Positions 25,653-40,851 of a DNA stretch of 40,851 nucleotides are shown one piece after another (positions within the stretch are counted from its first letter, which is position 1; each line of letters starts with the position of its first letter). A model generated the notes under the pieces. The model was given only the letters and a program-made list of their open reading frames with translations, had not been told where the DNA came from and did not search any database. Made by a program: the position numbers and the translations under genes. Origin of the DNA: a virus (taxonomy: Duplodnaviria > Heunggongvirae > Uroviricota > Caudoviricetes); IMG/VR virus record IMGVR_UViG_2541047691_000017. One strand, given 5' to 3'.

Positions 25653-25666
25653 TTCAATGACTCCGG

Positions 25667-26377: not shown

Positions 26378-26420
26378 GAATCACGCCTAAGGACCGTGAT
26401 GCCAGAAGTTCCAGGGGCTT

Positions 26421-26463
26421 GGCGGTGATGGTTTCCCTTGAAGGACTATCACCGCCATTTTTA
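26421..26463 (+). terminator. Intrinsic terminator downstream of tRNA-Arg
   Basis: Stem GGCGGTGAT...ATCACCGCC followed by ATTTTTA. Confidence 0.55.
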
Positions 26464-26540
26464 CAGCAGGACGCCATTGCGATGACTTCATGCTGTAAAC
26501 CAGTACAGCCACGGGAGGCATAACTCATTGCCTCCAGTTC

Positions 26541-26563
26541 GCCCGGTTCGCCGGGCATTTTTT
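26541..26563 (+). terminator. Hairpin plus T-run (terminator or attenuator) just before the Gp49-like gene
   Basis: Stem GCCCGG/CCGGGC, loop TTCG, then ATTTTTT; lies 17 nt upstream of the RBS of the 26580 gene. Confidence 0.45.
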
Positions 26564-26579
26564 AAGGTGAGAATAGACT

Positions 26580-26951
26580 ATGAGTGACAAAGACATTGAA
26601 TCTGAAATTCAGGCTAAAGGTTTAGCCGCGCCGCGCGTTACGCCAGACCATATCGAGAGCATTATTGCTCAGGAGGCATATTTCACAGCAGAAGATGGTG
26701 TCTTTGGCGTGGCCATAAAAGCGAAACATACTGGCGGAGAGGTAAACTACCAGCCGAACGAATCACTTTCTCTGCTGACGTTCTGCGTTCTGGTGCTGCG
26801 CAACGGCTTCACCGTCACCGGAGAGAGCGCCTGTGCAAGCCCAGAAAACTTTGATGCGGAAATTGGTCGGAAGATTGCCCGGCAGAATGCTGTAAACAAA
26901 ATCTGGATGCTTGAAGGTTACTTGCTGAAGCAGAAGTTAAGCGAGCAATAA
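26580..26951 (+). CDS. Gp49-like phage protein of unknown function
   Basis: 123 aa; RBS AAGGTGAG; resembles the small Gp49-like family seen as accessory genes in enterobacterial phages (memory only). Confidence 0.5.
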   Translation: MSDKDIESEIQAKGLAAPRVTPDHIESIIAQEAYFTAEDGVFGVAIKAKHTGGEVNYQPNESLSLLTFCVLVLRNGFTVTGESACASPENFDAEIGRKIARQNAVNKIWMLEGYLLKQKLSEQ

Positions 26952-26955
26952 CACC

Positions 26956-26967
26956 GTGACATGTCAC
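26956..26967. repeat. Palindrome GTGACATGTCAC, copy 2 of 3 (14-mer CGTGACATGTCACA)
   Basis: Perfect palindrome 5 nt after the stop of the 26580 gene; same 14-mer as at 29220..29233. Confidence 0.7.
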
Positions 26968-26972
26968 AAACA

Positions 26973-26998
26973 GCCAGCCGATGAGCTGGCTTTGTTTT
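26973..26998. terminator. Terminator between convergent Gp49-like gene and large terminase
   Basis: Stem GCCAGC/GCTGGC, 6-nt loop, then TTTGTTTT on the plus strand. Confidence 0.5.
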
Positions 26999-27041
26999 AT
27001 CCTCACCAGAGGATATCTCCGTCATTATCCCCGCTAACGGA

Positions 27042-28517
27042 TTAAGCATAGGGATCGTAATCTGTAATGGCCTTGCCTTGCTGGTTCTGCTGCCCGGGAA
27101 TTCGCAGGCGCTTTGACACCGGGAACGCAAACGTCAGCAGTAGCGCATCGCCTTTACCAGGAGAACGCCCAAGCCGCTCCTTGATATCTTCCTTCGGTTC
27201 GATAACGATTTTACCGTCCACTCGAACTTTGTACTCTGCCGCCGACAGGTCGTCCGCTGTTTCCTGGTCATCAAGCATGCCGCCCAGCCTCAGCCATGTC
27301 TTGCATGAGTTGAACATCTCCCCACGCTTGTTGAGCATCTGCTGGTCAGTAGACGCGCCACCGAACGGAACAAGTTGCCATGTACGACCCCAGCCGTCAC
27401 CGATTGACTTCAAACCGGTTCCGTAACCGAAGTCGATGAACACCGCGTCAGCCTGATACTGGTCTTCAAAGTCAGCGATACGCTTCGCCATAATCAGATC
27501 GTCGGTAGTCTTGTTGCCAGTCCACAGCACCTTACTGTGTAGCCCCTGCCGCAGGTATATCACAGCGTCATCAACGCCGGAGTATGCCGGGTCAACGCCG
27601 ATTATCACCGGAGCATGTGCCACCTGCGCAGCAGTTACCACCCGTTTCATTGCCTCGTCAGTAAGACCGGTAGGGATAAACTGCAATTCAGATGCATCAG
27701 GGAATATGCCACGCACACGGATTTTAACGAAGTCGCTATCTTCCCCGTAGTCATCAACCCATTTCTGCAACTGCTGTTTGTTGGTGCCTTCCACCGTCCT
27801 GCTGTCAATCTGCGCAGTTTTCCAGCGGTGTTTGTATTTGCGGAAACATTCACGGAAACGCCCGGTGTTACGTGTAGGGTTTCCGAAAGCCACCCAGATA
27901 ATCTCAGTGTCTTCGTCCGTTAGCGCACCCTCGGCAACTTCCCACACCAGATCCGCAATGTTCGACGCTTCATCAAATACCACGATGATGCGTTTACGCT
28001 CGTTGTGTAGTCCGGCGAATGCCTCAGTGTTGTGCTCAGACCAGGGGATTGCGTCAGCTCGCCACCGCTTGTCGTGCCCAGGGTCATTGCTGTACATCGC
28101 GGTAGCGGTACAGGTAAACCAGTCTTTCGTGATAGCAAGGTTTGACCACTTGATAATTTCCGGCCAGGTCTTCGTTCGTAGCTGGTTGTCGGTGTTGGCG
28201 GTCACCACGACCTTACAATCCTCGCAAGTGGACATGCCCCAGTTGATCAGCATTGAGATGAATGCGGATTTACCAATACCGTGACCAGAAGCACGTGCCA
28301 GCATAAGCGGCTGATATCGCGTCTCTGGATTCTGCAGGTGATCACGTATCTCTCGGAACGCATCGGCCTGCCACTGACGTGGACCGGTGGCATGTGCCAG
28401 TTCAGTACCCTCTTCCCCCCACGGGAACGCATAGAGGGCATAGCCAAGCGGATCGTGAGTGAACCCTGCAATATCCTCGATTAACTGCTCTTCAGGAGAT
28501 AACGCTGTATCTGTCAC
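27042..28517 (-). CDS. Terminase large subunit
   Basis: 491 aa; Walker A-like motif (ARASGHGIGKS) in the N-terminal ATPase region; overlaps the small-subunit gene. Confidence 0.85.
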   Translation of the reverse strand: MTDTALSPEEQLIEDIAGFTHDPLGYALYAFPWGEEGTELAHATGPRQWQADAFREIRDHLQNPETRYQPLMLARASGHGIGKSAFISMLINWGMSTCEDCKVVVTANTDNQLRTKTWPEIIKWSNLAITKDWFTCTATAMYSNDPGHDKRWRADAIPWSEHNTEAFAGLHNERKRIIVVFDEASNIADLVWEVAEGALTDEDTEIIWVAFGNPTRNTGRFRECFRKYKHRWKTAQIDSRTVEGTNKQQLQKWVDDYGEDSDFVKIRVRGIFPDASELQFIPTGLTDEAMKRVVTAAQVAHAPVIIGVDPAYSGVDDAVIYLRQGLHSKVLWTGNKTTDDLIMAKRIADFEDQYQADAVFIDFGYGTGLKSIGDGWGRTWQLVPFGGASTDQQMLNKRGEMFNSCKTWLRLGGMLDDQETADDLSAAEYKVRVDGKIVIEPKEDIKERLGRSPGKGDALLLTFAFPVSKRLRIPGQQNQQGKAITDYDPYA

Positions 28518-29110
28518 TGATTGCCATCCTGACGTTCTTTCAGTCTCTTCCTGGCTGCCGCTATGCGATCAGCAATTGTCACATTCACATTAACATCCAG
28601 GCGTTCTTTGAATGCGTTGACGTCGACGTGCTTACCAATCAGTTCGAGGTTCTTCACCTTGTCAGGCCATTTAATTTTTTTGAGGATTGTCTCTATCGAA
28701 TCCTCGTTCATGTTCATGATGGTCGATGACAGATCAAAGCCGCTAAGCGTAGTGCGCCAGATTTTCGGCCACTCTCGGATTGGCTTAAGGCTACCATCGT
28801 CGTTGAGGATGTCGATCACGTCCATCTGGTCGATCTCCACCAAGCGCATGAGAACGTAATCAGCACTGACGCGCATTCGTTTGTTGCGCTCCTCCATCAA
28901 CTCGGCAATCCGTTTTTGAATGCGTTCATCGCGCATCATGACACTGGCTTTAACTGCCGCTGTATTTGGGGAGAATCCTGCGTTAATCGCTGCCTGAGTC
29001 TGGTTTTCAGGCGTTTTGATGTATGACTGGCAATAAGCCTCCTGCATTGCTGTTAGTGGCTTAAATTGCGTTGATTTGCGTTTATAGGCTTTAGGTTCAG
29101 CAGGCATCAT
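28514..29110 (-). CDS. Terminase small subunit
   Basis: Immediately upstream of and overlapping the large subunit; start set at the MMPAEPK methionine (29108-29110), could extend to 29188; basic N-terminal region. Confidence 0.6.
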   Translation of the reverse strand: MMPAEPKAYKRKSTQFKPLTAMQEAYCQSYIKTPENQTQAAINAGFSPNTAAVKASVMMRDERIQKRIAELMEERNKRMRVSADYVLMRLVEIDQMDVIDILNDDGSLKPIREWPKIWRTTLSGFDLSSTIMNMNEDSIETILKKIKWPDKVKNLELIGKHVDVNAFKERLDVNVNVTIADRIAAARKRLKERQDGNQ

Positions 29111-29220
29111 AACCACCGTGGTAATAGTTACCGTTGTGGTAATAGTACCATGCAAAATAAAGCCGCCATAGTTGGCGGCAGTATTCAAACCCCATCAAAT
29201 TCATCATGCATAATCTACTC

Positions 29221-29232
29221 GTGACATGTCAC
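29221..29232. repeat. Palindrome GTGACATGTCAC, copy 3 of 3 (14-mer CGTGACATGTCACA)
   Basis: Perfect palindrome; its TCA (29229-29231) is the stop codon of the 29229..29570 gene. Confidence 0.7.
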
Positions 29233-29570
29233 ACTATTAATTTCGTTTCATGCCAGCCTTTAGTCACCCAGCATTGCGAGTCACCATCACACGGGCATGA
29301 ATTCACAGGAACTCTCTCGCCGCACTTACCGCAACGTTTTCTGCTGATCGATTTTATACGCCCGTGCACGCGTGCATCATCCTGGCGGATCAGTAACGCT
29401 ATATACTCACCAAATTCGTAAGGCGCACGCCCGGGGCGACGCGTGGCACAGTTACGCTCCAGCATTTCAATTTCCTGAGCATCAAGCACAATTTCCAGCT
29501 TACGCACACCAGATGCAGCTTGTCTGGCTCTCTGAGCGGCTTTGCGCTCTGCTGCTGATTTAGCCATCAA
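29229..29570 (-). CDS. Small basic protein with Cys-rich C-terminus (possible zinc-binding regulator)
   Basis: 113 aa; N-terminus Lys/Arg/Ala-rich; C-terminal C-x2-C-x9-C-x-C arrangement (RCGKCGERVPVNSCPCDGDSQCW); last gene before the terminase genes. Confidence 0.45.
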   Translation of the reverse strand: MMAKSAAERKAAQRARQAASGVRKLEIVLDAQEIEMLERNCATRRPGRAPYEFGEYIALLIRQDDARVHGRIKSISRKRCGKCGERVPVNSCPCDGDSQCWVTKGWHETKLIV

Positions 29571-29841
29571 TATTCACCTTTATAGCGAACACCTTTACCG
29601 GTTTATCGCCGAAGTGCGGATGTGTGATTGTCTTGATTTCATATCCGTCATACGGGACGTCAATTCTGCGGCTGGAATCGTCGCGCTTCGGATATCCCTT
29701 TGTGATAATCAGGCGGTCATACTCGCGGAACATAATTCGCTTATTCCAGTAGTCATTACACAGGCGATACTCTTCCGTTTTCTCTCCGCGAATCATGGCA
29801 TCGAAGTATTCACCTTTAACGGCAAGTTGCAGGTTAGCCAC
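29560..29841 (-). CDS. Hypothetical protein (possibly ASCH/PUA-like)
   Basis: 93 aa ORF with overlapping start/stop to neighbours; family guess is weak. Confidence 0.35.
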   Translation of the reverse strand: MANLQLAVKGEYFDAMIRGEKTEEYRLCNDYWNKRIMFREYDRLIITKGYPKRDDSSRRIDVPYDGYEIKTITHPHFGDKPVKVFAIKVNIDG

Positions 29842-30121
29842 GACCTTCCTCCTTTGGCTTGTGAATTTGTATCGTCATGCCGCTTTGAGTGGTGACTACA
29901 ACGACAGAACCAGGCTGAAGACTGTTAAGATTGAATGCTTCGTAAAACGAAGCCAAGGCCAGCGCTTTTTTATTCTTTCGGTTCCACCAACGCCATCCAT
30001 TGCTACAGGCTACACTGACAATCCACTGTCCACTCCTGTAAGCCATATAAAACCAGATGAGCAAAACCTGAATGAATGCTATCCAGTCAATAATCGTATA
30101 TTTCGCGAAGGAGACCATCAA
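29834..30121 (-). CDS. Hypothetical small protein with hydrophobic N-terminus
   Basis: 95 aa; coupled to neighbours in the gene block between replication and terminase genes. Confidence 0.35.
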   Translation of the reverse strand: MMVSFAKYTIIDWIAFIQVLLIWFYMAYRSGQWIVSVACSNGWRWWNRKNKKALALASFYEAFNLNSLQPGSVVVVTTQSGMTIQIHKPKEEGRG

Positions 30122-30690
30122 TTAACCTCCTGCGGCGGTTCCGGTAGAGGCATCCAGTACAAGGCGTTCCCTAACCACGATAAAGTGCCGTCGCTCAACT
30201 CCACGTATTCCCCTTGTACCTGTCCTGCCATATACTCGCCGTGCTTTGAATAAATTAAAATCCAATCATCTTGAGCGGGCATTCGCTCACTACAGCTTAT
30301 CCAACCATCCGGAGTTACCGGATAGTTGCCCGACAGCTCGTTCAACTTGTAAGTTTGGCTTACAGGTTCGGCTTCCAGTTCTGCAATGCGCTTCTCTGCA
30401 GCTTCCAGCTCAACGCGCAGCTTCCCTACCGTTAGCGCAATTTCCTCGTTCTCCTGGTCGCGGCGTTTGATGTATTGCTGGTTTCTTTCCCGTTCATCCA
30501 GCAGCGCCAGCACGGTTTCTGGTCCGGTCAGAAATTTGAAGGCGTTGAGCGCATCAATATCCACACCGTAATCCTTAAGTTCCTGTTCACTTAACAAATC
30601 ATCATCAACTGGCAACATTAACAGGCGTTCCATTGCCGGAATTGCACGTTCTGCCGCCTCACGCAGTGCCTGATAGTTAATTTTGGTCAT
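30118..30690 (-). CDS. Phage protein with C-terminal DUF551-like domain
   Basis: 190 aa; C-terminal motif W...YWMPLPEPP is typical of the DUF551 family (from memory); coiled-coil central part. Confidence 0.5.
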   Translation of the reverse strand: MTKINYQALREAAERAIPAMERLLMLPVDDDLLSEQELKDYGVDIDALNAFKFLTGPETVLALLDERERNQQYIKRRDQENEEIALTVGKLRVELEAAEKRIAELEAEPVSQTYKLNELSGNYPVTPDGWISCSERMPAQDDWILIYSKHGEYMAGQVQGEYVELSDGTLSWLGNALYWMPLPEPPQEVN

Positions 30691-30691
30691 A

Positions 30692-30991
30692 TCACATCCC
30701 CCTGAAGCCGTTGCATTTACGTAAAAAATCGCAGATATAGCCCTTCATTTTTTCGTGCCAATCTCGATCATTCCCATTGCACCAACCATCAGGTGGAGTC
30801 CAGTTTTCTATCAGAGCAGCCATTTTCTTTGCTTTCGCCGGAGTAGCTGTTGCGGTATCGCAGTAATGACGAGTGTCAACCAACGTATCCATACCATCGA
30901 TATCAAGTACGCAAAACCATGTGTGATTCGGCATTTCAACAGATGGTATTTGTTGCCCACGTCGACGTTTATCAATAAGACATACAGTCAC
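30692..30991 (-). CDS. Hypothetical protein
   Basis: 99 aa ORF, Cys/Trp-containing; 1-nt gap to the next gene. Confidence 0.35.
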   Translation of the reverse strand: MTVCLIDKRRRGQQIPSVEMPNHTWFCVLDIDGMDTLVDTRHYCDTATATPAKAKKMAALIENWTPPDGWCNGNDRDWHEKMKGYICDFLRKCNGFRGM

Positions 30992-31590
30992 TGGTTGCCT
31001 CCTTTGCGAAGCTGGGCAGCAAAGTCAACTAACCACTCAGTCATTTCAACCTTCCCTACCAGGTCTGAACCAGGGTGCATACAGCAATCACTCTGCGCCG
31101 CTTTGAAATCCTTATACTCATATTCTTGGGCCACCAGATTTTTTGCAGCTTCTATAGCAGCATCCACCCCCTGCGCCCGAATTTCAGCCAGGAAAGCATC
31201 GGTGGCTGGCATATTTCCTGTTGCCTTCATGGCCTCCAAAATAACCAGAACGCCATCTCGCCCAACCACCTCAGCGATAACCTCGGTGTTGTCGCCAACA
31301 ACATCGCAGAATGCCTGAACTGCCTTACGAGCCAGCTCATTCTCCGCCGCCAGCACCGAAAACTTCTCGTGCGCCAACTTAACAGCCGAATCAGCCTGCT
31401 TAATTGACTCAGTCGCTCTCTGGTGGTCTTCGGCCAGCGCATTAGCACGCACCAGTTGCACTTCCAGTTGCGTTGCCAAATCGCTGATCAGCTTTGCCAC
31501 ACTGCGCATATCAACGGCACCACATTCTGCTTTCAGTTCCGAAGCCATCTCATGCCCGGCGGAAACTAACCCTTTGATATTACTTTCCAT
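30988..31590 (-). CDS. Hypothetical coiled-coil protein (Ea22-like position)
   Basis: 200 aa, helical/acidic; overlapping stop/start with downstream gene. Confidence 0.4.
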   Translation of the reverse strand: MESNIKGLVSAGHEMASELKAECGAVDMRSVAKLISDLATQLEVQLVRANALAEDHQRATESIKQADSAVKLAHEKFSVLAAENELARKAVQAFCDVVGDNTEVIAEVVGRDGVLVILEAMKATGNMPATDAFLAEIRAQGVDAAIEAAKNLVAQEYEYKDFKAAQSDCCMHPGSDLVGKVEMTEWLVDFAAQLRKGGNQ

Positions 31591-31651
31591 CTTTACCCTC
31601 GCTTATCCACATAACTTATTGATTACATTGATAACTAAAAAGATCGTCGAT

Positions 31652-31999
31652 TCAGAACTCTTCGATGTTCCAGCCACCACCAGCTTTCTTTGGTTTAACC
31701 GTTACCCCGATGATTCGGAACGGATACTGATCTGCGGCGACTTTGGTTTTCACCCTGGCGTCGTCGGTCCAGAATCCCCCTTTCACTTCGTGCAGTTCCA
31801 TCTCTCCGGTGGCGAGCATCACAGCGAAATCTGGCGTATAGAACGTGTTGTCAGCTAACCGCAGCTTGATACCCTCAAATCGATACCAGACGATTTCTCC
31901 TGCACGTTTACGCATCTCAAGGTGCTGACAATACGCAGATTCTGTTTTGTTCATCTGGCCTGTTTTGAGTCGACCAAGAGCCTGTATCTGTTTTCTCAT
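31652..31999 (-). CDS. Putative small nuclease-fold protein (DUF1064/VRR-NUC-like)
   Basis: 115 aa; motif TPDF...ELHEVKG reminiscent of small PD-(D/E)XK phage proteins; operator-like palindrome immediately upstream. Confidence 0.4.
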   Translation of the reverse strand: MRKQIQALGRLKTGQMNKTESAYCQHLEMRKRAGEIVWYRFEGIKLRLADNTFYTPDFAVMLATGEMELHEVKGGFWTDDARVKTKVAADQYPFRIIGVTVKPKKAGGGWNIEEF

Positions 32000-32002
32000 G
32001 AT

Positions 32003-32017
32003 TTACCCCTGAGGTAA
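32003..32017. promoter_or_regulatory. Operator-like palindrome TTACC-CCTGA-GGTAA
   Basis: Exact TTACC-N5-GGTAA, 4 nt upstream of the start codon of the 31652..31999 gene. Confidence 0.5.
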
Positions 32018-32064
32018 TTAAAAACCACATAAGACAAGAAATCAATAGATTTTAGAATATTTTA

Positions 32065-32079
32065 TTACCTCATAGGTAA
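32065..32079. promoter_or_regulatory. Operator-like palindrome TTACC-TCATA-GGTAA
   Basis: Exact TTACC-N5-GGTAA in the intergenic region downstream of the P-like gene. Confidence 0.5.
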
Positions 32080-32116
32080 TTATTGAGACATAAAAAAATG
32101 CGCTATCGCGCTGGTA

Positions 32117-32917
32117 TTACTTGATAAATCCTGCCGCCTTTCCCCGCCTGTATTCCTCCATCAGCCACTGCGCCGGTGTTATTCCCCCCAGGGTGGCGGC
32201 GTTAGGCATGCACCCGAAACTTCGCCCTGGCGGGTGGTAAACGTCTCTCCCTGTGTCCGGAGGTGTACTCATGGGCTCTGGCTTTGCCTGTATGCTGATC
32301 ACCGGATCGGGTATCTGCTGTCCGGAAGCCACCTTTTTCGCCCAATCATCGAGCAGCCTGCGCGCGTGTTTCTCAACCTCAATCTCGCTAAGCTGGCGCT
32401 GATACATTGCACGGCGGGTATCACATACGACCCAGTACATAACCGGATGCCGCCACGGGAATCTTTCGGGACCACCAGGATATAAACTTTTTTCCTTGCT
32501 GTACCGGTGAAACTCCGCCATCACATCGTCAATGGTGACGCCAAGAACCATCTTGCTGTCTTTACACCACTTGATAAATTGCCCTGGCGACGGCCAGAAC
32601 GGAGATTCGCTGGCGCGGGCGTGGCGCATACCAGCAGAAACCTGTTCACGGGTTCGGATCCCACCTTCGGCAAACGCAGCAATCCACTGCTGTTTTGCAG
32701 CAACTTCCTGCTCTGGCGTCTTCAGGTTGGTTACCACTGCCGCCGGAAACAGTTGTTTCAGCTGTTTGAAAAGGGCATCAACAAGCCTCTCTGCTGACAT
32801 GTTCACCACGTTGTCATTGTTGGTGTACTGATGCTCATAACCTGACATGCGAGAAAGGGCTTCTCCGTCACGGTTTTGTATCGCGGTAAAAACGTTGTTC
32901 ACAAGAAATCCTCCCAT
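32117..32917 (-). CDS. Replication protein, lambda P-like (DnaB helicase loader)
   Basis: 266 aa; central region (LFPAAVVTN...QQWIAAFAEGGIRTREQVSAGMRHARASESPFWPSPGQFIKWCK) aligns by eye with recalled lambda P (FPASLANR...RQWVLAFRENGITTMEQVNAGMRVARRQNRPFLPSPGQFVAWCR). Confidence 0.8.
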   Translation of the reverse strand: MGGFLVNNVFTAIQNRDGEALSRMSGYEHQYTNNDNVVNMSAERLVDALFKQLKQLFPAAVVTNLKTPEQEVAAKQQWIAAFAEGGIRTREQVSAGMRHARASESPFWPSPGQFIKWCKDSKMVLGVTIDDVMAEFHRYSKEKSLYPGGPERFPWRHPVMYWVVCDTRRAMYQRQLSEIEVEKHARRLLDDWAKKVASGQQIPDPVISIQAKPEPMSTPPDTGRDVYHPPGRSFGCMPNAATLGGITPAQWLMEEYRRGKAAGFIK

Positions 32918-33714
32918 GCTTCAGGGCTGTTCCAGTGCGGAACGTTGTTATCAGGTAATGTTGATTGCTTCTGTCTGCTAATCTGCAGCCGCCTTGCCAG
33001 CTTCTGCTCCCACTGTGCCTGATGGTATGCCTTACCCTCAGCCATCCAGTAAATTCTGAACTCTGCAAGTTCCTGTGCCGTTGGCAGACTGTCCAGGTAG
33101 ATCCCCTGCAATGAGCTTTTCCGAAGAAAGTCATCTGATGGCTGCCATTGTTCATGCATGACAAATTTGCCTAATTGCCCTGGCCCACCAGGAGGAACAA
33201 AGTTATTCATCACGGCGTTGTTTGCGCCGGGGTCATGAGGCACAGAATCCCCGGTTTTTGTCCTGCTCTCCCTCTCTTGGTTAAATGACTGGTTATATGA
33301 CTGGTTCTGGATCCCGTTTTTGGGATCATTCAACATCCCGTTTTTGGGATCATTCAACATCCCGTTTTTGGGTATATTCCCGCTTTCGGTAACATTACCG
33401 TTTTCGGGTTCATTGCCCCCCTCCCGGTTGCCTTTAATGTTCCCGTTTTTGGTTATATTAAGAGAGAAAACCCGCACTCTTTTTGTCGCTCCCTTTCTCT
33501 CTCCGGTATCTGAAATAAGCCCCATTTTCATGAGCGATATAAGCCCGGCCTGCACGGTTTTTTTATTCAGGCAAGTGTCTTTAACGAGGCGTTCTATGCT
33601 GGGGTAGCATAGGTTATATTCATCGGCTCTGTCAGCCATCGAGAGCAGTATGAGCTTTAATGACGAGCTACCTGGATCTGTCTCCCAGGCCCAATCTGTT
33701 GCATGTCTGCTCAT
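32899..33714 (-). CDS. Replication initiator, lambda O-like, with internal iteron-encoded peptide repeats
   Basis: 271 aa; N-terminal HTH-type domain; central PKNGMLND repeats encoded by the DNA iterons; immediately upstream of the P-like gene. Confidence 0.7.
   Translation of the reverse strand: MSRHATDWAWETDPGSSSLKLILLSMADRADEYNLCYPSIERLVKDTCLNKKTVQAGLISLMKMGLISDTGERKGATKRVRVFSLNITKNGNIKGNREGGNEPENGNVTESGNIPKNGMLNDPKNGMLNDPKNGIQNQSYNQSFNQERESRTKTGDSVPHDPGANNAVMNNFVPPGGPGQLGKFVMHEQWQPSDDFLRKSSLQGIYLDSLPTAQELAEFRIYWMAEGKAYHQAQWEQKLARRLQISRQKQSTLPDNNVPHWNSPEAWEDFL
33312..33459. repeat. Iterons (putative origin of replication) inside the O-like gene
   Basis: Two perfect 24-bp tandem copies TCCCGTTTTTGGGATCATTCAACA (33312-33359) followed by four or more degenerate units with core CCGTTTT(T/C)GG. 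Confidence 0.7.
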
Positions 33715-33729
33715 GATTAATCTCCGCTA

Positions 33730-33930
33730 TCAGCTTGAATGTTGTGGGGAGGAATTAATCATGATCTGCTTAATCTCTGCCCTGATACGACGGTTTGATT
33801 CCATGGTGCACTCAACACAGTGTCCGTTGTAAACCCAACGTTCACTGTCATGTCCGTGCTTACATGGTTTTCCGGTGTAGTAGCGTTTAAGTCCGCGCTT
33901 TGCGGCATCAATACGTGTAATGATTTCCAT
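33730..33930 (-). CDS. Small Cys/His-containing protein (cII-position gene, function unknown)
   Basis: Start at ATG 33928-33930 (MEIITRIDAAKRG...); contains C-x-H-G-H...C-x-x-C; between the Cro-like and O-like genes. Confidence 0.4.
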   Translation of the reverse strand: MEIITRIDAAKRGLKRYYTGKPCKHGHDSERWVYNGHCVECTMESNRRIRAEIKQIMINSSPQHSS

Positions 33931-34010
33931 GGTAAGCCCTGTTATTAGTATTGGGATTACGGTCATTTTGTGCTGACACAAAAAAAAGATCAACCAGATT
34001 TGGTTTTTTA

Positions 34011-34025
34011 TTACCTTTGAGGTGC
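34011..34025. promoter_or_regulatory. Degenerate operator-like site TTACC-TTTGA-GGTGC
   Basis: Left half exact, right half 3 of 5; in the intergenic region downstream of the Cro-like gene. Confidence 0.35.
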
Positions 34026-34036
34026 GAATAGATATG

Positions 34037-34058
34037 AAAAGACCGCCGGGTGGCGGTC
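34037..34058 (-). terminator. Intrinsic terminator downstream of the Cro-like gene (tR1-like position)
   Basis: Perfect stem GACCGCC/GGCGGTC with 4-nt loop; on the minus strand it is followed by TTTT. Confidence 0.6.
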
Positions 34059-34080
34059 TACAGAGGGTTGTGGCTGGATA

Positions 34081-34311
34081 TCATGAGTAGAAGAAGTATG
34101 CCAGTTCTGCTTTTGAGCGCAGCCATTGTCTTGTTTTACAGGCTTTAAAAAGCCCATTCATCAATACTTTACCTGGCATTTTGCGCTTACCTGTTAAGTG
34201 AGTCTGGATATAGTGACTCGTCGTTCCGGCTTCCTGTGCGAAGGCTTCACGCTCATCCGGAGTAAGTGCAAGCCAGTGCTTTTTGAAATCGAAATGTCCG
34301 TTATCGCTCAT
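34081..34311 (-). CDS. Cro-like HTH regulator
   Basis: 76 aa; HTH-like segment (REAFAQEAGTTSHYIQTHLTGKRKMP); divergent from the repressor gene across an operator-containing intergenic region; followed by terminator and replication genes. Confidence 0.6.
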   Translation of the reverse strand: MSDNGHFDFKKHWLALTPDEREAFAQEAGTTSHYIQTHLTGKRKMPGKVLMNGLFKACKTRQWLRSKAELAYFFYS

Positions 34312-34347
34312 AGCTATTGCCTGATATTTATTTCAGATAATAAATAT

Positions 34348-34362
34348 TCACCCATAAGGTAA
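34348..34362. promoter_or_regulatory. Operator site 1 in repressor/cro intergenic region (TCACC-CATAA-GGTAA)
   Basis: 9 of 10 match to TTACC-N5-GGTAA; forms a larger inverted repeat with the 34379 site (CACCCATAAGGTAAC ... GTTACCTATGGGGTG). Confidence 0.55.
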
Positions 34363-34378
34363 CAAAAATCAAGGATAG

Positions 34379-34393
34379 TTACCTATGGGGTGC
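34379..34393. promoter_or_regulatory. Operator site 2 (TTACC-TATGG-GGTGC)
   Basis: Left half exact, right half degenerate; mirror partner of the 34348 site. Confidence 0.5.
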
Positions 34394-34395
34394 AT

Positions 34396-34410
34396 TTACC
34401 TGTTGGGTAA
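34396..34410. promoter_or_regulatory. Operator site 3 (TTACC-TGTTG-GGTAA)
   Basis: Exact TTACC-N5-GGTAA, 56 nt upstream of the repressor start codon. Confidence 0.6.
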
Positions 34411-34465
34411 TATTGCTTTAAATTGAATCATCTACTGATTCATATACGAGGCGATTTTCCAGAAA

Positions 34466-35050
34466 ATGAAAAGTATCCAGGACGTCCGCAGGCAAAATCT
34501 CAACGACTTGATCGACCGTGAATTCAATGGTGTTCAGACGCGGATGGCAGAAAAACTTGGAACTCAGGCAAATCTGGTAAACCGCTGGGCTCTTGGCAAG
34601 AAGGTTATCGGCGACCAGGTTGCGCGAAAAATTGAAGCTGCCGCCAATAAACCCCGTAACTGGCTTGATATCGATCGCTCGCTTTCTCAGGAAGGTTTTC
34701 AGCCTGTCGGCCCAAGCGACATTGGCCAGCTGGCGGCTCACAACCTGGAACGCTGGATGAGCGAAAGCCGCGACCTTTCAACACAGGGAAAACTTCACCG
34801 CGCATCCGGCGTCGCCCAGGTGACAATCAGCCGCCTGTTAAACAATGAGGTCAGCGTTTCCATTTCCACCCTGGAGAATGTTGCATCCGCATTCGGGCGT
34901 CACGGCTATGAATTACTGATTCACCCGCACGACCCTGCGACCATCAACTATGACCGCTCGCGCTACGCATTGTTACCCGAAACCGAGAAAGCAAAGATCG
35001 AAAGTTACATTGAATTTGTCATCAACCAGAACGAAAAAAACAAACAATAA
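34466..35050 (+). CDS. Prophage repressor candidate: tandem-HTH (two XRE-type HTH domains) protein without an autocleavage domain
   Basis: 194 aa; HTH-like segments TRMAEKLGTQANLVNRWALGKK and ASGVAQVTISRLLNNEVSVSISTL; no Ala-Gly / Ser-Lys peptidase S24 module seen; divergent from Cro-like gene. Confidence 0.6.
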   Translation: MKSIQDVRRQNLNDLIDREFNGVQTRMAEKLGTQANLVNRWALGKKVIGDQVARKIEAAANKPRNWLDIDRSLSQEGFQPVGPSDIGQLAAHNLERWMSESRDLSTQGKLHRASGVAQVTISRLLNNEVSVSISTLENVASAFGRHGYELLIHPHDPATINYDRSRYALLPETEKAKIESYIEFVINQNEKNKQ

Positions 35051-35107
35051 AATCATATTTTTCAGTAAGTAAGCCGCCTTCTGGCGGCTTTTTTATTGCC
35101 TATACTA

Positions 35108-35122
35108 TTACCTAATGGGTAA
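35108..35122. promoter_or_regulatory. Operator-like palindrome TTACC-TAATG-GGTAA (OL-like)
   Basis: Exact TTACC-N5-GGTAA upstream of the early-operon promoter. Confidence 0.55.
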
Positions 35123-35141
35123 TTTTTTTAACTCATATCTA

Positions 35142-35184
35142 TTGACATCAAACCAAATACGCATAATTATTACCTAAACGGTAA
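35142..35184 (+). promoter_or_regulatory. Putative early promoter (-35 TTGACA at 35142-35147) with overlapping operator TTACC-TAAAC-GGTAA (35170..35184)
   Basis: TTGACA followed by AT-rich -10 candidates and an exact operator palindrome; precedes the rightward recombination operon (pL-like position). Confidence 0.55.
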
Positions 35185-35203
35185 CAGACCGAGGTAACAA
35201 GTT

Positions 35204-35356
35204 ATGCAGTGGAAAATCATCAACGGTTGGTGCTGCGTTACTGCATGCGGATTCATGAGCTGGAAGTTCCGCACCTTACAGGAAGGCATTAAGTGGGCTT
35301 TCGTCAGCAAAGAAGCTCGCGATGTGGCCAACGATAACGAGATATGGGAGGTCTGA
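35204..35356 (+). CDS. Small hypothetical protein (50 aa), first gene of early operon
   Basis: ATG 35204 with GAGG RBS; Trp/Cys-containing; below the 60-aa ORF-track cutoff, translated manually. Confidence 0.3.
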   Translation: MQWKIINGWCCVTACGFMSWKFRTLQEGIKWAFVSKEARDVANDNEIWEV

Positions 35357-35358
35357 TA

Positions 35359-35658
35359 ATGAACGTTAATCAGCAGAAAAATCTTCAAAAAATCATGCTG
35401 GCATTCGACAAGGACTACCGCCTGTCAGAACAGCTATATGACCGACAAGTTGAACTGATCGAGAGCATCCGGCTTCATCAACTAGCCTCAACTTTCGACG
35501 CTGTAACAGGTAAAGGCGTTCGCCAGGAAGTACTGGAGGCCGCTAAAGACAGTCCAGAGTTCGAAGAACTGATGGATTCCTACCGGCGCGAGGCAATGGC
35601 AATTATAGCGCGCTGGGATCTGGCGGATCAGCTTGATGGGCAGAGGGACGCGGCATGA
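35359..35658 (+). CDS. Hypothetical early protein
   Basis: Start ATG 35359 (MNVNQQKNLQK...), GGAGG RBS; ATGA overlap with the exonuclease gene. Confidence 0.45.
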   Translation: MNVNQQKNLQKIMLAFDKDYRLSEQLYDRQVELIESIRLHQLASTFDAVTGKGVRQEVLEAAKDSPEFEELMDSYRREAMAIIARWDLADQLDGQRDAA

Positions 35659-36554
35659 TGCGGAACGCTGGAATCATGGATAGAACAAAATACATCGGAG
35701 GAAGCGATGTTGCAGGGATTCTTGGAGTTAGCCCATGGCGCACCCCGCTTGAGGTTTATCTGGATAAGGTCCAGCCACGTGTCAAACCAGTAGACCCAAG
35801 CAAGCAGAAAGTTTTCACGCGTGGCCAGCGTATGGAGCCATACGTAATAGACCTGCTTTCTGAGGAAACAGGGATGGAAATCGTTCATCGCGGAAACCGC
35901 TATATCCACCGTGATTACGATTTTATTGCAGCTGAGATCGATGCAGAAGCAGCGTCAGGCGAGAACATTGAGATCAAAACAGTTAGTCCGTTCAAAGCCA
36001 AAGAATGGGGAGAAATCCAGACAGATGCAATTCCTGTGCATTACACGGCCCAGGCCATGCACGGGTTGATGGTTACAAACAAACAGGTATGCGTTTTCGG
36101 TGTGCTTATCGGTGGCGACGACTTCCGAATCTATCGGGTTGAGCGTGATGAAGAAACTATCCAGGCGATCTTAGAAAAAGAAATCGCTTTCTGGGACCGA
36201 GTGAAAAATCTTAACCCGCCGGAAGCTACCAGCGTAAGCGATGTATCGCTGATGTTTGAGAAAGATGCCGGGACAAGTATCGAGGCTGACGGAAAGGCAC
36301 TCGCACTATTCAACGATCTACGAGACATGAAGTCACGCAGAAAATCACTGGAAGAAGAAATAGCTATATCAGAAGAGAAGCTGAAGATGTACATGCAAGA
36401 GCACTCAGTCCTGACCCTGGACGGAAAGCCGCTCTGCACATGGAAATCTCAGATCAGCAACAGATTCGACCAGAAGCTATTCCAGTCAGTACACCCTGAG
36501 TTATTCGAAAAATTCAAAACAACAACGACACAACGCGTCTTCAGAATGAAGTAA
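35655..36554 (+). CDS. YqaJ/lambda-Exo-type recombination exonuclease
   Basis: 299 aa; N-terminal motif GGSDVAGILGVSPWRTPLEVYLDK typical of YqaJ-like viral recombinase exonucleases; immediately upstream of RecT. Confidence 0.75.
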   Translation: MMRNAGIMDRTKYIGGSDVAGILGVSPWRTPLEVYLDKVQPRVKPVDPSKQKVFTRGQRMEPYVIDLLSEETGMEIVHRGNRYIHRDYDFIAAEIDAEAASGENIEIKTVSPFKAKEWGEIQTDAIPVHYTAQAMHGLMVTNKQVCVFGVLIGGDDFRIYRVERDEETIQAILEKEIAFWDRVKNLNPPEATSVSDVSLMFEKDAGTSIEADGKALALFNDLRDMKSRRKSLEEEIAISEEKLKMYMQEHSVLTLDGKPLCTWKSQISNRFDQKLFQSVHPELFEKFKTTTTQRVFRMK

Positions 36555-36563
36555 GGAGAAAAA

Positions 36564-37586
36564 ATGTCTATCAATGCACTTAAGGCAGCGGCTACCGGTA
36601 ACCAAGTTGCACATCATAATGAGAAACCAACAACTCTGGCCGGACTTCTGGCAGACCCAAAAATTAAAGCTCAGATGGCTTTGGCACTTCCAAAGCACAT
36701 GACAGCAGACCGTCTGGCGCGCATAGCAACCACAGAGATCAGAAAGGTTCCAAAACTTGCATCATGCGACCAAGCCAGCTTCCTGGGGGCAATTATGCAA
36801 TGTGCCCAATTGGGTCTTGAACCAGGCGGAGCTCTTGGACACGCTTACCTGATACCGTTCGACAAACGCCAGAAAGTAAATGGAAGATGGGAAACCGTAT
36901 CTACAGAAGCACAGCTTATTATCGGCTATCGCGGAATGATTGACCTTGCCCGCCGCTCTGGGCAGATCCTGAGTATCTCGGCTCGTACCGTACATACAAA
37001 CGACAAATTCAGCTACTCATACGGCCTGGAAGAAACGCTCGAGCATTTACCTTGCGAAACAGGTGACCGCGGAGAATTAACGCACGTTTACGCCGTTGCA
37101 CGACTGAAAGATGGCGGAGTCCAATTTGAAGTTATGAGCCGGGCAGACGTTGAGAAAGTTCGTGCACTGAGCAAAGCCGGTAGCAGTGGCCCATGGGTTG
37201 ATCACTTCGATGAGATGGCTAAAAAAACAGTAATTCGCCGACTGTTCAAATATCTTCCTGTTTCTATTGAAATGCAGAAGGCTGTTGTTATGGATGAGCG
37301 CGCTGAAGCTGGACTTAGCCAAGATAACGCAGCTGTTATCACTGGTGAATATTCCGTAGTTGACGATGAGCGTCAACACCTGTCGCCAATTTCAGATTCA
37401 GAACGAGAAGAAGCTCGAGAATATATCATCGCGATACTTAATAGCCTGGATCCATCTGCTGAAGATGCAAAAACGATGTTCAAGCGCGCTGAAAATGAAA
37501 TTAACACCATGGCTGAAAAGCTCGGTGATGAATATCACCAAAAATTCATGATGACGCTTAACGATATGCGTCCAGAATTCGAGTAA
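36564..37586 (+). CDS. recT: RecT-family single-strand annealing recombinase
   Basis: 340 aa; long stretches match recalled RecT (HMTAERxxRIATTEIRKVP, QLGLEPGxALGHAYLxPF, QLIIGYRGMIDLARRSGQI, HVYAVARLKDGG.QFEVM, GPWV.H..EMAKKT.IRRLFKYLPVSIE). Confidence 0.85.
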   Translation: MSINALKAAATGNQVAHHNEKPTTLAGLLADPKIKAQMALALPKHMTADRLARIATTEIRKVPKLASCDQASFLGAIMQCAQLGLEPGGALGHAYLIPFDKRQKVNGRWETVSTEAQLIIGYRGMIDLARRSGQILSISARTVHTNDKFSYSYGLEETLEHLPCETGDRGELTHVYAVARLKDGGVQFEVMSRADVEKVRALSKAGSSGPWVDHFDEMAKKTVIRRLFKYLPVSIEMQKAVVMDERAEAGLSQDNAAVITGEYSVVDDERQHLSPISDSEREEAREYIIAILNSLDPSAEDAKTMFKRAENEINTMAEKLGDEYHQKFMMTLNDMRPEFE

Positions 37587-37635
37587 CCACCACCGCGGCG
37601 CAACGCGCGCCGCACTGCAACCAAGAGAGGTATTT

Positions 37636-37884
37636 ATGAAAGGTGCATTAGGTAAGAAGGAACTCCTGGCGGTGGTGCCACTGTCATGGAGCACTATCGA
37701 CCGTATGGAGCGCGCAGGTGAATTTCCTAAACGCTGGTATATCACTGACAAACGCTGCGCATGGAACCGTGACGAAGTTGAGCGTTGGCTTGATGAACGT
37801 CAGGCAGCAAGCCCGGCAGAGTTCCAGGGTAAAAAACCTCCTGTTCAGCAACGTGTATATCGTCCCGTGAGCAACGCTGCATGA
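37636..37884 (+). CDS. AlpA/Xis-family small DNA-binding protein (excisionase-like)
   Basis: 82 aa; pattern LSWSTIDRMERAGEFPKR...WNRDEVERWL fits AlpA-type regulators commonly paired with P4-type integrases. Confidence 0.55.
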   Translation: MKGALGKKELLAVVPLSWSTIDRMERAGEFPKRWYITDKRCAWNRDEVERWLDERQAASPAEFQGKKPPVQQRVYRPVSNAA

Positions 37885-37993
37885 GTGCGCTGCTAAGGCA
37901 CTGGAGCAAATGGTCAGGATGGTACTTATTCCTGGACTCTGTTTCAGCATGGCTTTATCTGCTGGCATTAATTTTCAGAGAGGGTTGGATTAA

Positions 37994-38293
37994 GTGAGAA
38001 AGTTAAGCCGACTTGAAAAATATCACATGAATAAGGTTTCAATGCGTAGTCCGTCAAAGATTGTCGCCGTTACTCCTGCGGCGATAGAGATCGAAAAACG
38101 CGCGATTGAAAGAGAAAAAAAAGGGCAGTTCCGCATTGCCGCTCACCTTTGGCTTCAGTGTATGGATGTTGCTTCTGGTGATGTTGAGCGAGCAAGGATT
38201 GCGGTTCGCAGGGACCAATGTATCACAAAAGGTAACGGCCTTCGCCGTGGCGACTATAGCGGCATAGGATGTTGTGGGGTGGTTTATGACTAA
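37994..38293 (+). CDS. Small regulator-like protein, possibly PerC-family
   Basis: GTG start at 37994 with GAGGG RBS (alternative ATG 38027); segment KKGQFRIAAHLWLQCMDVA...RARIAVRRDQC loosely recalls PerC/Pch-type activators. Weak. Confidence 0.35.
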   Translation: MRKLSRLEKYHMNKVSMRSPSKIVAVTPAAIEIEKRAIEREKKGQFRIAAHLWLQCMDVASGDVERARIAVRRDQCITKGNGLRRGDYSGIGCCGVVYD

Positions 38294-38936
38294 GAAATAC
38301 ACACTAATCTATGCAGATCCACCCTGGGTATACCGGGACAAAGCCGCAGATGGTAATCGCGGTGCCGGTTTTAAATATCCGGTTATGAGTGTGCTTGATA
38401 TCTGCCGCCTTCCTGTGTGGGATTTGGCCGATGAAAACTGTCTGTTGGCCATGTGGTGGGTGCCAACACAACCACTCGAAGCACTAAAAGTTGTTGAAGC
38501 CTGGGGATTCCGTCTGATGACCATGAAGGGCTTCACGTGGATAAAATGTGGTAGTCGACAACAAGATAAACTGGTTATGGGTATGGGTCACATGACTCGC
38601 GCCAATAGTGAAGATTGCCTGTTTGCAGTAAAGGGAAAACTACCTCCGCGCATTAATGCAGGGATCGTTCAGTCATTTACCGCACCGCGGCTTGAGCATT
38701 CAAGAAAACCAGATGTCGTTCGTGAAAAACTTGTGCAATTGTTAGGCGATGTTTCTCGCATTGAACTGTTCGCCCGCCAGTCGTCTCATGGCTTCGATGT
38801 TTGGGGTAATCAGTGCGAAGACCCGGCAGTGCAACTACACCCTGGATACGCGTTGGCTATTGGCGGATTAACAAATGCATTCAGCAATGCTCCGCTGTCA
38901 CCAACAGACAACCAGGGGCGGGAGCGTTCAGCATGA
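38286..38936 (+). CDS. MT-A70-family N6-adenine DNA methyltransferase (orphan)
   Basis: Start at ATG 38286 ([14 protein letters not shown]...); catalytic DPPW motif near the N-terminus; no adjacent restriction gene; ATGA overlap with the phosphatase gene. Confidence 0.75.
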
Positions 38937-39592
38937 ACCTATATCAACGCATCAATGGCGCTGACTGGTGCAATATCTTCGTCGTCGGCGATCTGCATGG
39001 GTGCTACACGCTGCTGATGAACGAACTCGACAAAGTTTCATTCGACCCGGCGCGCGATTTGCTTATTTCCGTTGGTGACCTTGTTGACCGCGGCGCTGAA
39101 AACGTCGAATGCCTGGATTTGATTACTATGCCGTGGTTCCGAGCTGTTCGTGGCAACCATGAGCAGATGATGCTGGATGCACTGGTCAACGGCGGAAGTT
39201 TCGGACATTGGATGTCAAACGGCGGTGGATGGTGGCGCCAACTTGATTCTGAGCAGGATGTGCAACTCAAATACCTTCTGCCAAAGGTTACCAACCTCCC
39301 GATGATTATCGAACTGGTTACCGGCAATAAGAAGGTCGTCATCTGCCACGCAGACTACCCCCACAACGAATACGCATTCGATAAGCCAGTACCGGAAGAA
39401 ATGGTGATATGGAATCGTGAGCGGGTTAGCGACGCGCAGGACGGTATTGTCTCGGAGATAACCGGTGCCGATTTGTTCATCTTCGGTCATACGCCAGCAC
39501 ATCACCCACTAGTGTATGCAAACCAGATGTACATCGACACCGGCGCAGTGTTCTGCGGAAATCTGACGCTTACCAAAGTCCAGGAAGGATAG
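38933..39592 (+). CDS. Ser/Thr protein phosphatase (lambda PPase / metallophosphoesterase family)
   Basis: Start ATG 38933 (MNLYQRING...); motifs VVGDLHG, GDLVDRG, GNHE characteristic of lambda-type phosphoprotein phosphatases. Confidence 0.8.
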
Positions 39593-39594
39593 AA

Positions 39595-40851
39595 TTATTT
39601 ATTACTGTCTTCCATCCACTTCTCAAACTTCGACGGGGAGAACGGAATCAGATCCGTATGCTCCCCGTTAATCCAGGAATCAATCATATCGGCCCACTGC
39701 TGCAACATGTAGGCGCGCTGTCTGGCGTATTCCGCTTTGTTATATACGGCGCGCACACCTTTCTGCTCATGTGCCAGAGCCTTTTCAATCCAGTCTGAAG
39801 GATAACCAGCCTCATGCAACAACGTACTGGCTGTACGGCGCATATCATGTACAGTGAAGTCCTGAATATACTCACCATCTTCATTTATTATTTTCACCGT
39901 TCTGTCGATCAGAGAGTTCAGTGCGGCATTAGATAATGGCTTCCGGAAATTGTAACGACCAGGAACCAGATATTCACTTCCACCAGCGCACATCTGCAAC
40001 CCAACCAATATATCCTGTGCCTGTTTTGGCAGGTAAATAACGTGCGCCCGGCTTCCCTTCATGCGGTCTGAAGGAATTGTCCATGTCCATTTTTTAAAAT
40101 CTATTTCGTCCCACGTTGCATTGGTGAATTCGCCTTTACGAACCATAGTGATAAGCACCAGTTTTAAAGCCATTTTCATAGTGCCCATAGCACCAATGGC
40201 ATCCAGCGTGCGGAAGAAAAGACCAATTTCTTCTGGTGTCAGCGTTCGCTCTCGTGGTTTAAATATGGCGATAGACGAAGGCTTAATATCAGCCGCAGGA
40301 TTAAACAAACCATGACCGCGGTCATTGGCGTGACGGTATACGCTGCTGATGATCTCCCTGGCCTGCACTGCTGTTGCCCGGCCACCGCGTTCGACAATCC
40401 GGTCACACAAATCACGAACCATCGATGTGGTAATTTCAGCCATCATTTTGTTGCCAAGAACCGGAAGTATGTCACGGTCGATCACCGCCTGCTTCATTGC
40501 GCGGGTACTGTCAGCCAGGATGACGTGTTTCATATAACTGTCGGTATGTACCGCAAACGTCTCGGCACCACGAATCTTTTTGATACCGTCACGTTTAGCC
40601 GCAGCCGGCGACTGGCCTGCTTTAAGCAGCTTCTTTGCAGCAATCAGTTCTTCCCGCGCTTCTGCCAGGCTGATACCGTCACGCCCATACTGCCCGATTA
40701 CCAGTGTTTCGCGGCGACCGTTGATACGGTAGTCATAGCGAAACGAGACCGTACCTGACGTAAGCACAGCTACATACAGCCCGTCACGATCGGAGACCTT
40801 GTACAGTTTGTCCTGCGGCTTGAGGTTTTTTAATTTTGTATCGGTAAGCAC
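39595..40851 (-). CDS. int: Tyrosine recombinase/integrase, P4-type; N-terminus at the window edge (may be slightly truncated or start with GTG)
   Basis: 418 aa; N-terminal arm-binding-type region (KLKNLKPQDKLYKVSDRDGLYVAV...FRYDYR) and C-terminal catalytic residues (R...HDMRRTASTLL...AVYNKAEY); convergent with the early operon. Confidence 0.85.
   Translation of the reverse strand: MLTDTKLKNLKPQDKLYKVSDRDGLYVAVLTSGTVSFRYDYRINGRRETLVIGQYGRDGISLAEAREELIAAKKLLKAGQSPAAAKRDGIKKIRGAETFAVHTDSYMKHVILADSTRAMKQAVIDRDILPVLGNKMMAEITTSMVRDLCDRIVERGGRATAVQAREIISSVYRHANDRGHGLFNPAADIKPSSIAIFKPRERTLTPEEIGLFFRTLDAIGAMGTMKMALKLVLITMVRKGEFTNATWDEIDFKKWTWTIPSDRMKGSRAHVIYLPKQAQDILVGLQMCAGGSEYLVPGRYNFRKPLSNAALNSLIDRTVKIINEDGEYIQDFTVHDMRRTASTLLHEAGYPSDWIEKALAHEQKGVRAVYNKAEYARQRAYMLQQWADMIDSWINGEHTDLIPFSPSKFEKWMEDSNK

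Follow-up and report, generated by a model that had tools for sequence, protein, structure and literature searches.

The three genes at positions 37994-39592 of the window, the whole stretch of 40,851 nucleotides of phage DNA that was analysed, form, on a reading that we hold with moderate confidence, the int-proximal end of a repressor-controlled early-left operon in which a PerC-like backbone regulator is followed by a probable GATC orphan methylase and an exchangeable phosphatase cassette. What the data show directly is which genes these are, where the first of them starts, the operon in which they lie, the conservation of the methyltransferase slot and the polymorphism of the cassette. The three genes and those that adjoin them are the following.

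37636-37884, plus strand: AlpA-family excisionase/regulator, present in all relatives (Pfam Phage_AlpA, 24.2 bits; phrog_66 excisionase)
37881-37997, plus strand: open reading frame for a 38-aa membrane peptide, homologue of epsilon15 gp32 and phiV10 p35 (phrog_17484 over residues 1-38 of 38)
37994-38293, plus strand: PerC-family small helical protein of 99 aa with a GTG start (Pfam PF06069, phrog_868)
38286-38936, plus strand: orphan MT-A70 (beta-class N6-adenine) methyltransferase of 216 aa, the open reading frame being called from 38274/38286 (Pfam PF05063, phrog_359)
38933-39592, plus strand: lambda-type (NinI/PPP family) Ser/Thr protein phosphatase of 219 aa (PF00149, phrog_246, 1G5B)
39595-40851, minus strand: tyrosine integrase with a P4-type arm-binding domain (Pfam; PGAP annotation of the 99.9% identical ST95-32 region)

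Sequence comparison places the phage in genus Uetakevirus, the phiV10/epsilon15 group. E. coli ST95-32 carries a prophage, flanked by yfgI and guaA in its record, to which the window is related as a mosaic: over the right-hand 9.4 kb (31433-40851) the two share 99.9% identity, and matches above 99.5% extend only across 1-6974, 17228-29205 and 31433-40851. Hundreds of E. coli genomes, as well as phiV10-like phages, carry DNA with a similar annotation that matched the three-gene region at 98-100% identity, and about 545 E. coli records in RefSeq contain it at 95% identity or more. The conservation of its genes goes well past what chance would give. In phiV10 itself p34 (PerC-like), p33 (adenine methylase) and p31 (integrase) stand in matching order at 98-100% DNA identity, and the variant with the phosphatase is found in matching gene order in phage vB_EcoP_PAS61 and in the APEC O1 and ST95-32 prophages. 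All three products are already annotated in RefSeq and GenBank, in hundreds of genomes, as a PerC-family regulator, an MT-A70/adenine methyltransferase and a Ser/Thr phosphatase, and Pfam and PHROG bear out the three open reading frames and families (PerC-like, MT-A70 with DPPW, lambda-type phosphatase) that had been proposed when the DNA was first read without database searches. The region as a whole is therefore a matter of routine prophage annotation, an ordinary find of a known kind. The five minus-strand open reading frames tested (37684-39505) matched no phage protein family, and an Rfam search of the whole window gave no match inside the three-gene region. The biochemical activities and the targets proposed below for the three products are those that their sequences suggest.

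The upstream features that bear on the expression of these genes lie between the repressor gene and the start of the early-left operon.

34466-35050: repressor gene
35071-35090: terminator after the repressor gene and just before the promoter/operator block (promoter/terminator scan)
35108-35124 and 35170-35184: operator-like palindromes, TTACC-N5-GGTAA, flanking the PL-like promoter (repeat search)
35142-35170, plus strand: PL-like early-left promoter, TTGACA-17-AATTAT (promoter/terminator scan)

The TTACC-N5-GGTAA motif is also present between the repressor and cro genes, and it agrees with the repressor sites annotated in epsilon15. From the PL-like promoter to 39592 the promoter/terminator scan predicted no further plus-strand promoter or terminator, and the three genes sit about 2.8-4.4 kb downstream of the operator-flanked promoter, so that their placement at the end of the early operon by the sequence-only reading is upheld. 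From AlpA to the phosphatase the successive plus-strand genes overlap by 4, 4, 8 and 4 nt, the methylase/phosphatase overlap being the 4 nt ATGA. The int gene is convergent with the phosphatase gene, with the two stop codons 2 bp apart, and the window ends at the int start. The 38-aa membrane peptide, for which dN/dS against epsilon15 is 0.18, is left unannotated by PGAP in ST95-32. The five tightly packed genes are translationally coupled and would be transcribed from the repressor-controlled early-left promoter. Because the predicted promoter is flanked by operators and no internal promoter is predicted, low expression is expected in a repressed lysogen. The promoter and operator pattern matches thus predict that the three genes are expressed on induction or infection and not in the quiescent lysogen.

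The start of the first gene had been called uncertain, since it begins with GTG and overlaps the methylase reading frame. PGAP places it at ATG 38042 (83 aa) and the phiV10 RefSeq record at ATG 38027 (88 aa), whereas the conserved form is 99 aa long. When the starts in the window, phiV10, epsilon15, SPC32N, Tyrion and one Klebsiella phage were aligned, position 37994 was found to be ATG in the four non-E. coli phages, each overlapping the stop codon of the membrane peptide (ATGA/GTGA), as the GTG start in the window overlaps its TGA stop (GTGA). The internal ATGs at 38027 and 38042 are not conserved, being replaced in these four phages by CTG/CTT/GCG and CAG/AAA/CAA. In codons 1-16 dN/dS against epsilon15 is 0.085 and 8 of the 11 differences are at third positions, which indicates that this stretch is under purifying selection; the N-terminal LEKYH segment is conserved in 23 proteins from several genera, and a Shine-Dalgarno-like sequence, AGAGGG, lies 9 nt upstream of GTG 37994. 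The 8-nt overlap with the methylase gives no ground for doubt, as the junction ATGACTAA, with the methylase ATG at 38286, is invariant in the six phages. The start alignment, the dN/dS of codons 1-16 and the conserved N-terminus thereby settle the question in favour of GTG, and the 99-aa form from GTG 37994 is, as judged from these comparisons, the real PerC-like product. It also follows that, throughout this phage group, the annotated starts systematically make the PerC-family gene too short.

The PerC-like protein passed the gathering threshold of Pfam PF06069 (30.1 vs 22.6 bits; residues 35-80 on positions 5-50 of the 90 in the model) and matched the transcriptional activator family phrog_868 over residues 1-99 of 99, and its dN/dS between the window and epsilon15 is 0.13. 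The link to EPEC PerC was visible only by profile comparison: tblastn/BLAST against EPEC PerC showed no similarity, whereas hhalign of a 23-sequence PerC-like alignment against EPEC pMAR2 PerC gave a probability of 95.5%, an E value of 1.5e-8 and 41% identity over 58 columns. The homology to EPEC PerC covers residues 34-91. What is common to the phage protein and to EPEC PerC and EHEC Pch (PF06069) is the small size and a helical core of ~58 residues, whereas the conserved extension of 33 aa at the N-terminus is peculiar to the Uetakevirus subfamily and absent from EPEC PerC. An AlphaFold2 model of moderate confidence (pLDDT 72) was all-helical, with a three-helix core and a disordered tail, and no helix-turn-helix was seen in it. 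Foldseek searches of the PDB with this model returned only non-significant MIT/TPR-like three-helix matches, and the best viral fold matches were three phage proteins of ~60 aa, one of them named ANR family, with target-normalised TM values of 0.81-0.86 at E values of 0.1-0.7, which are not significant. Against the ANR family model NF033650 the protein scored 23.6 bits, below the cut-off of 32, and hhalign against the ANR member Rnr of E2348/69 gave a probability of 6%. The fold matches are suggestive, and a link to the ANR family is kept as a lead.

All relatives examined, from Salmonella, Enterobacter, Klebsiella, Citrobacter, Kosakonia, Scandinavium, Erwinia and others, have the PerC-like gene in one and the same position, behind AlpA and the membrane peptide. 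The sequence-only reading had made its case for this open reading frame depend on conservation in related prophages and had suggested a profile search; the open reading frame is indeed conserved in related prophages and phages, and the profile search placed the protein in the PerC family. With this distribution PerC-like counts among the backbone genes of the phage group and is not accessory. A role in virulence gene expression had also been suggested for it, and this suggestion found no support, as the subfamily occurs in phages of Salmonella, Klebsiella, Enterobacter and Citrobacter and is tied to EPEC PerC at the profile level only. To our knowledge the hosts of PerC-like phages in these four genera have no LEE for PerC or Pch to act upon, and LEE is absent from the window as well. 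Given hosts without LEE, LEE activation cannot be the conserved function of PerC-like. Most likely, PerC-like would be an early regulator that binds another regulatory protein after induction or infection.

In its full form the earlier proposal makes PerC-like and the phosphatase factors of lysogenic conversion, able to reprogramme virulence expression or signalling of the host in the lysogen. This we regard as unlikely. It can draw on the known activities of the family, since PerC and Pch are activators of LEE and, in EHEC, PchE has effects on adhesins and flagella (PMC7369912). The position of the genes argues the other way, because expression that is predicted to be linked to induction makes the modulation of virulence in a lysogen less likely, and so does a backbone gene that is kept in phages of genera that, as far as we know, carry no LEE. 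For the phosphatase, the relatives of the lambda enzyme in E. coli, PrpA and PrpB, affect stress signalling, and the cassette in which it lies is variable and moron-like; it scored, however, below the equivalog cut-offs of both PrpA and PrpB (PRK11439, 265.9 vs 326; PRK09968, 220.9 vs 332). Nothing in this analysis supports the virulence-regulation story.

The methylase aligned over the full Pfam MT-A70 model PF05063 (positions 1-172 of 172; 80.3 bits, cut-off 23.9), matched phrog_359 DNA methyltransferase and scored 256 bits against the PADLOC type II MTase model, and its nearest PDB structures were ciliate MTA1-type and METTL3 enzymes. The DPPW motif occupies residues 11-14 and a conserved RIELFAR segment, which can be read as motif I, lies near residue 160, an order of motifs that is that of the beta class. 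The dN/dS of the core between the window and TL-2011c is 0.05. The neighbours of the methylase are PerC-like and the phosphatase; no restriction gene adjoins it, none is recognisable among the window open reading frames screened, no nuclease family was found among them and the locus does not qualify as a type II restriction-modification system, and hence the methylase had been rightly described as an orphan. Over residues 1-187 it is ~83% identical to the Stx2a-phage enzyme of the M.EcoPA8orf6770P / M.EcoGV type, with which it has in common the DPPW motif, a position in the early operon near int and the lack of a cognate restriction enzyme. The two differ in that the C-terminal tail of M.EcoPA8orf6770P is unrelated to that of the window methylase after residue ~187, and in that M.EcoPA8orf6770P has its partner PNB-2 immediately upstream and co-transcribed whereas the window methylase has PerC-like there instead. 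Gong et al. gave the sequence of a terminator that precedes gp6/PNB-2 in phiPA8; it is present unchanged in the TL-2011c locus, and this shared terminator ties the TL-2011c gene pair to M.EcoPA8orf6770P and PNB-2. When TL-2011c gp12, which is of the PNB-2 type, was used as the query, tblastn found no PNB-2 homologue in the window (best E value 7.9) and blastp gave no match to PerC-like.

The order AlpA, PerC-like, methyltransferase, int was found in 19 of 19 diverse relatives. What fills the methyltransferase position between PerC-like (with or without DUF1317) and int varies among these 19 loci: it is an MT-A70 enzyme in 12, a PF05869 Dam in 5 and a fusion of C5 (PF00145) and Dam in 2. Optional genes occur just upstream of MT-A70, namely one for a DndB-like protein in SPC32N and Citrobacter and one for a winged-helix protein in Tyrion, and in two loci (Klebsiella ATCC 13883 and Scandinavium) the open reading frame directly upstream of MT-A70 is PD-(D/E)XK-like at a sub-threshold score (23.9 vs 26.1 bits). 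The comparison indicates that some methyltransferase is a fixed feature of the phage group and not an accessory one. That unrelated families of DNA methyltransferase replace each other in one slot speaks for DNA methylation as the function under selection, and no better argument for such selection is available.

We think it most likely that the methylase would act as an orphan N6-adenine enzyme that modifies phage DNA early in the lytic cycle. Its target would probably be GATC by analogy with the Stx-phage relative M.EcoGV, as relatives of the M.EcoGV type are recorded in PMC6602927 and PMC10810198 as GATC methylases after in vivo overexpression. Methylation of GATC would keep the replicating phage DNA fully modified. 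GATC is mildly depleted in the window (142 observed vs 195 expected), which carries little weight either way. If the target is indeed GATC, the enzyme would supplement the host Dam and not evade most restriction systems, and it would be largely redundant in a Dam+ host. The earlier proposal that the methylase protects phage DNA from host restriction is therefore sustained in part: a DNA-protective role is plausible, since the slot also holds unrelated DNA methyltransferases, but a broad anti-restriction role is not supported, as the closest characterised relatives are assigned to GATC or to 16S rRNA (PMC10810198, PMC6602927).

The assignment to rRNA raises the question whether DNA is the substrate at all. 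When the Stx-phage enzyme was purified, its methylation of DNA in vitro was not significant or negligible, and in complex with PNB-2 it preferred 16S rRNA (Gong et al. 2023; PMC10810198). By analogy with this homologue, DNA may not be the physiological substrate of the window methylase, and it could be an RNA methyltransferase like M.EcoPA8orf6770P-PNB-2 that acts on 16S rRNA and thereby tunes translation and spontaneous prophage induction and does not protect DNA. The ~83% identity of the catalytic core, the phiPA8 terminator in the TL-2011c locus, the MTA1/METTL3-type enzymes as closest solved relatives and the negligible DNA activity of the published enzyme on its own all agree with such a role. 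We nevertheless consider it quite unlikely. No PNB-2 homologue is encoded anywhere in the window, and the C-terminal ~27 residues of M.EcoPA8orf6770P, suggested to be possibly important for formation of the PNB-2 holoenzyme (PMC10810198), fall in the tail that is unrelated here. Moreover, sister prophages fill the slot with bona fide DNA families (Dam PF05869, C5 PF00145), proteins of the DndB-like or PD-(D/E)XK-like kind accompany MT-A70 in some loci, and the REBASE-type assignment of relatives is GATC (PMC6602927).

Another way to accommodate the missing PNB-2 is that PerC-like functionally replaces it as the partner or specificity subunit of the methylase, the 8-nt overlap reflecting a two-subunit MT-A70 enzyme. 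MT-A70 would then be only half of the enzyme, and the coupled PerC-like protein in the place of PNB-2 would steer methylation to rRNA or to special DNA sites and so control prophage induction. Enzymes of the MT-A70/beta class are usually dimers or heterodimers (PMC7544214, PMC10810198), the two reading frames overlap and are translationally coupled, and PerC-like is small and, in its model, helical and devoid of a DNA-binding helix-turn-helix. The two genes are adjacent, however, only in the E. coli phiV10 lineage, and one to three genes intervene in epsilon15, SPC32N, Tyrion, Klebsiella, Citrobacter and other relatives; PerC-like is kept at 61-67% identity where Dam or C5+Dam replaces MT-A70, the Stx-phage MT-A70 is found without PerC-like, and PerC-like has no sequence similarity to PNB-2. 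The persistence of PerC-like where there is no MT-A70, together with an adjacency limited to the E. coli lineage, argues against an obligate partnership, and both the partnership and the control of methylation that it implies seem to us highly improbable.

The phosphatase matched Metallophos PF00149 (59 bits) and the NinI-like phosphatase family phrog_246, and it aligned without gaps to lambda phosphatase (NinI, orf221; PDB 1G5B) at an E value of 1.2e-99 with 145 of 217 residues identical (67%). The signature motifs GDxHG, GDxVDRG and GNHE are all present, and the nine catalytic, metal-binding and phosphate-binding residues of the lambda enzyme (D20, H22, D49, R53, N75, H76, H139, R162 and H186) are kept. 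Lambda NinI and the window phosphatase have length and catalytic residues in common. They differ in genomic context and not in protein family: the lambdoid gene lies in the nin region, with the replication genes on one side and Q on the other, and the window gene belongs to a podovirus, in which it closes the early-left operon next to int; the nearest nin-region phosphatase genes (phi80, HK225) are only ~78% identical in DNA. The conserved residues suggest an active Mn-dependent enzyme of the lambda-PP type, which would be expressed with the early genes and would presumably dephosphorylate host or phage proteins. We know of no function that has been established for lambda-type phage phosphatases, and a literature search on the biological role of NinI found no defining or decisive report. 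The phage phosphatases that counter aRES defence were considered as a parallel; they appear to be Macro-domain enzymes and were judged not relevant.

The phosphatase gene fills a variable cassette, which was delimited by blastn of the window against phiV10.

38939-39611: variable cassette of 673 bp

Homology to phiV10 ends at 38938, two codons into the phosphatase gene, and is restored from 39612 on, within the 3' end of int. Where the window has the phosphatase, phiV10 has a cassette of ~200 bp with a 64-aa DUF1382 gene, the swap being exactly at gene boundaries, and no flanking repeats were found around the cassette that explain the swap. The complete E. coli genomes of RefSeq contain about 545 closely related prophages, of which 142 are of the phosphatase type and most others carry DUF1382, and in a sample of IMG/VR loci the numbers were 20 with the phosphatase, 46 with DUF1382 and 2 with other cargo. 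A phosphatase that is 69% identical also follows MT-A70 in a divergent lineage (L013). The description of all three genes as accessory thus fits the phosphatase only, as a swappable cassette, and does not fit PerC-like and a methyltransferase, which are fixed in 19 of 19 relatives; the phosphatase is, by these comparisons, the only truly accessory gene of the three, in a cassette that replaces DUF1382 in roughly a quarter of related prophages.

Besides the correction of the start, two of these observations are of modest use. A fixed slot that holds three unrelated types of methyltransferase argues for a role at the DNA level, and it is thereby relevant to the recent report of rRNA methylase activity for the closely related Stx-phage enzyme. 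The phosphatase/DUF1382 dimorphism provides natural, near-isogenic pairs of phages in which the function of lambda-type phosphatases can be probed.

In seven sister prophages (the comparison loci L008, L009, L010, L011, L095, L098, and L099) the position of the MT-A70 methyltransferase gene, between the PerC-like gene and the integrase gene int, is occupied by another methylase, which is either a 183-aa Dam methylase of PF05869 or a fusion of a C5-methylase with Dam of 635-664 aa. The replacement of MT-A70 is a non-orthologous displacement inside a fixed 'methylase slot'. In two other prophages an ORF of 168-192 aa is found directly upstream of the MT-A70 gene and overlaps it:

L102, 6319-6825, K. 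pneumoniae ATCC 13883
L097, 6251-6829, Scandinavium sp.

The match of this ORF to PDDEXK_5, a PD-(D/E)XK endonuclease family, was sub-threshold at 23.9 bits against 26.1 bits, and the ORF and MT-A70 may form a restriction-modification pair in these two prophages. When tetranucleotides were counted in 1101-40851 of the window, GATC was found 142 times and CTAG 8 times, where a Markov model predicts about 195 and about 31 occurrences, respectively. GATC is mildly depleted in this phage, which carries a putative GATC methylase.

The start annotation of the PerC-family gene varies inconsistently between the records of the family, and the loci with discordant starts are:

37994-38293, window
40042-40293, L001
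2922-3188, L004

Comparison supports the 99-aa form in the window, whereas RefSeq starts are shorter (83 aa by PGAP and 88 aa in phiV10) and other records lengthen the gene to 122-127 aa. The gene just upstream is:

37881-37997, + strand, 38-aa membrane-peptide ORF, phrog_17484

This ORF is kept in all Uetakevirus relatives with a dN/dS of 0.18 and is translationally coupled to both neighbouring genes, and it is omitted in the PGAP annotation of the 99.9% identical ST95-32 record. At the other end of the region, the phosphatase gene and int are convergent with their stop codons 2 bp apart, and no terminator was found between them in 39592-39612. Compared to phiV10, the cassette swap also alters the final few codons of int.

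Over its full length the window matches the ST95-32 prophage at more than 99.5% except for 6974-17228 and 29205-31433, which are unmatched. The two are distinct elements, related to each other as mosaics. Other features are:

7048-7233, + strand, isrK Hfq-binding sRNA (67.7 bits) and C4 antisense RNA (61.2 bits), Rfam
26301-26377, + strand, tRNA-Arg (anticodon TCT), near the packaging genes
about 3395-6514, - strand, tailspike gene

The isrK and C4 matches are immediately 5' of an AntA/AntB antirepressor gene (7283-7933), and this arrangement resembles an antisense immunity module of the P1/P7 style, here within a podovirus-type prophage. The tailspike gene, through its 99.5% identity to the ST95-32 record, takes that record's annotation as an endosialidase beta-propeller protein, and this annotation would imply that this epsilon15-like phage is specific for the K1 capsule.
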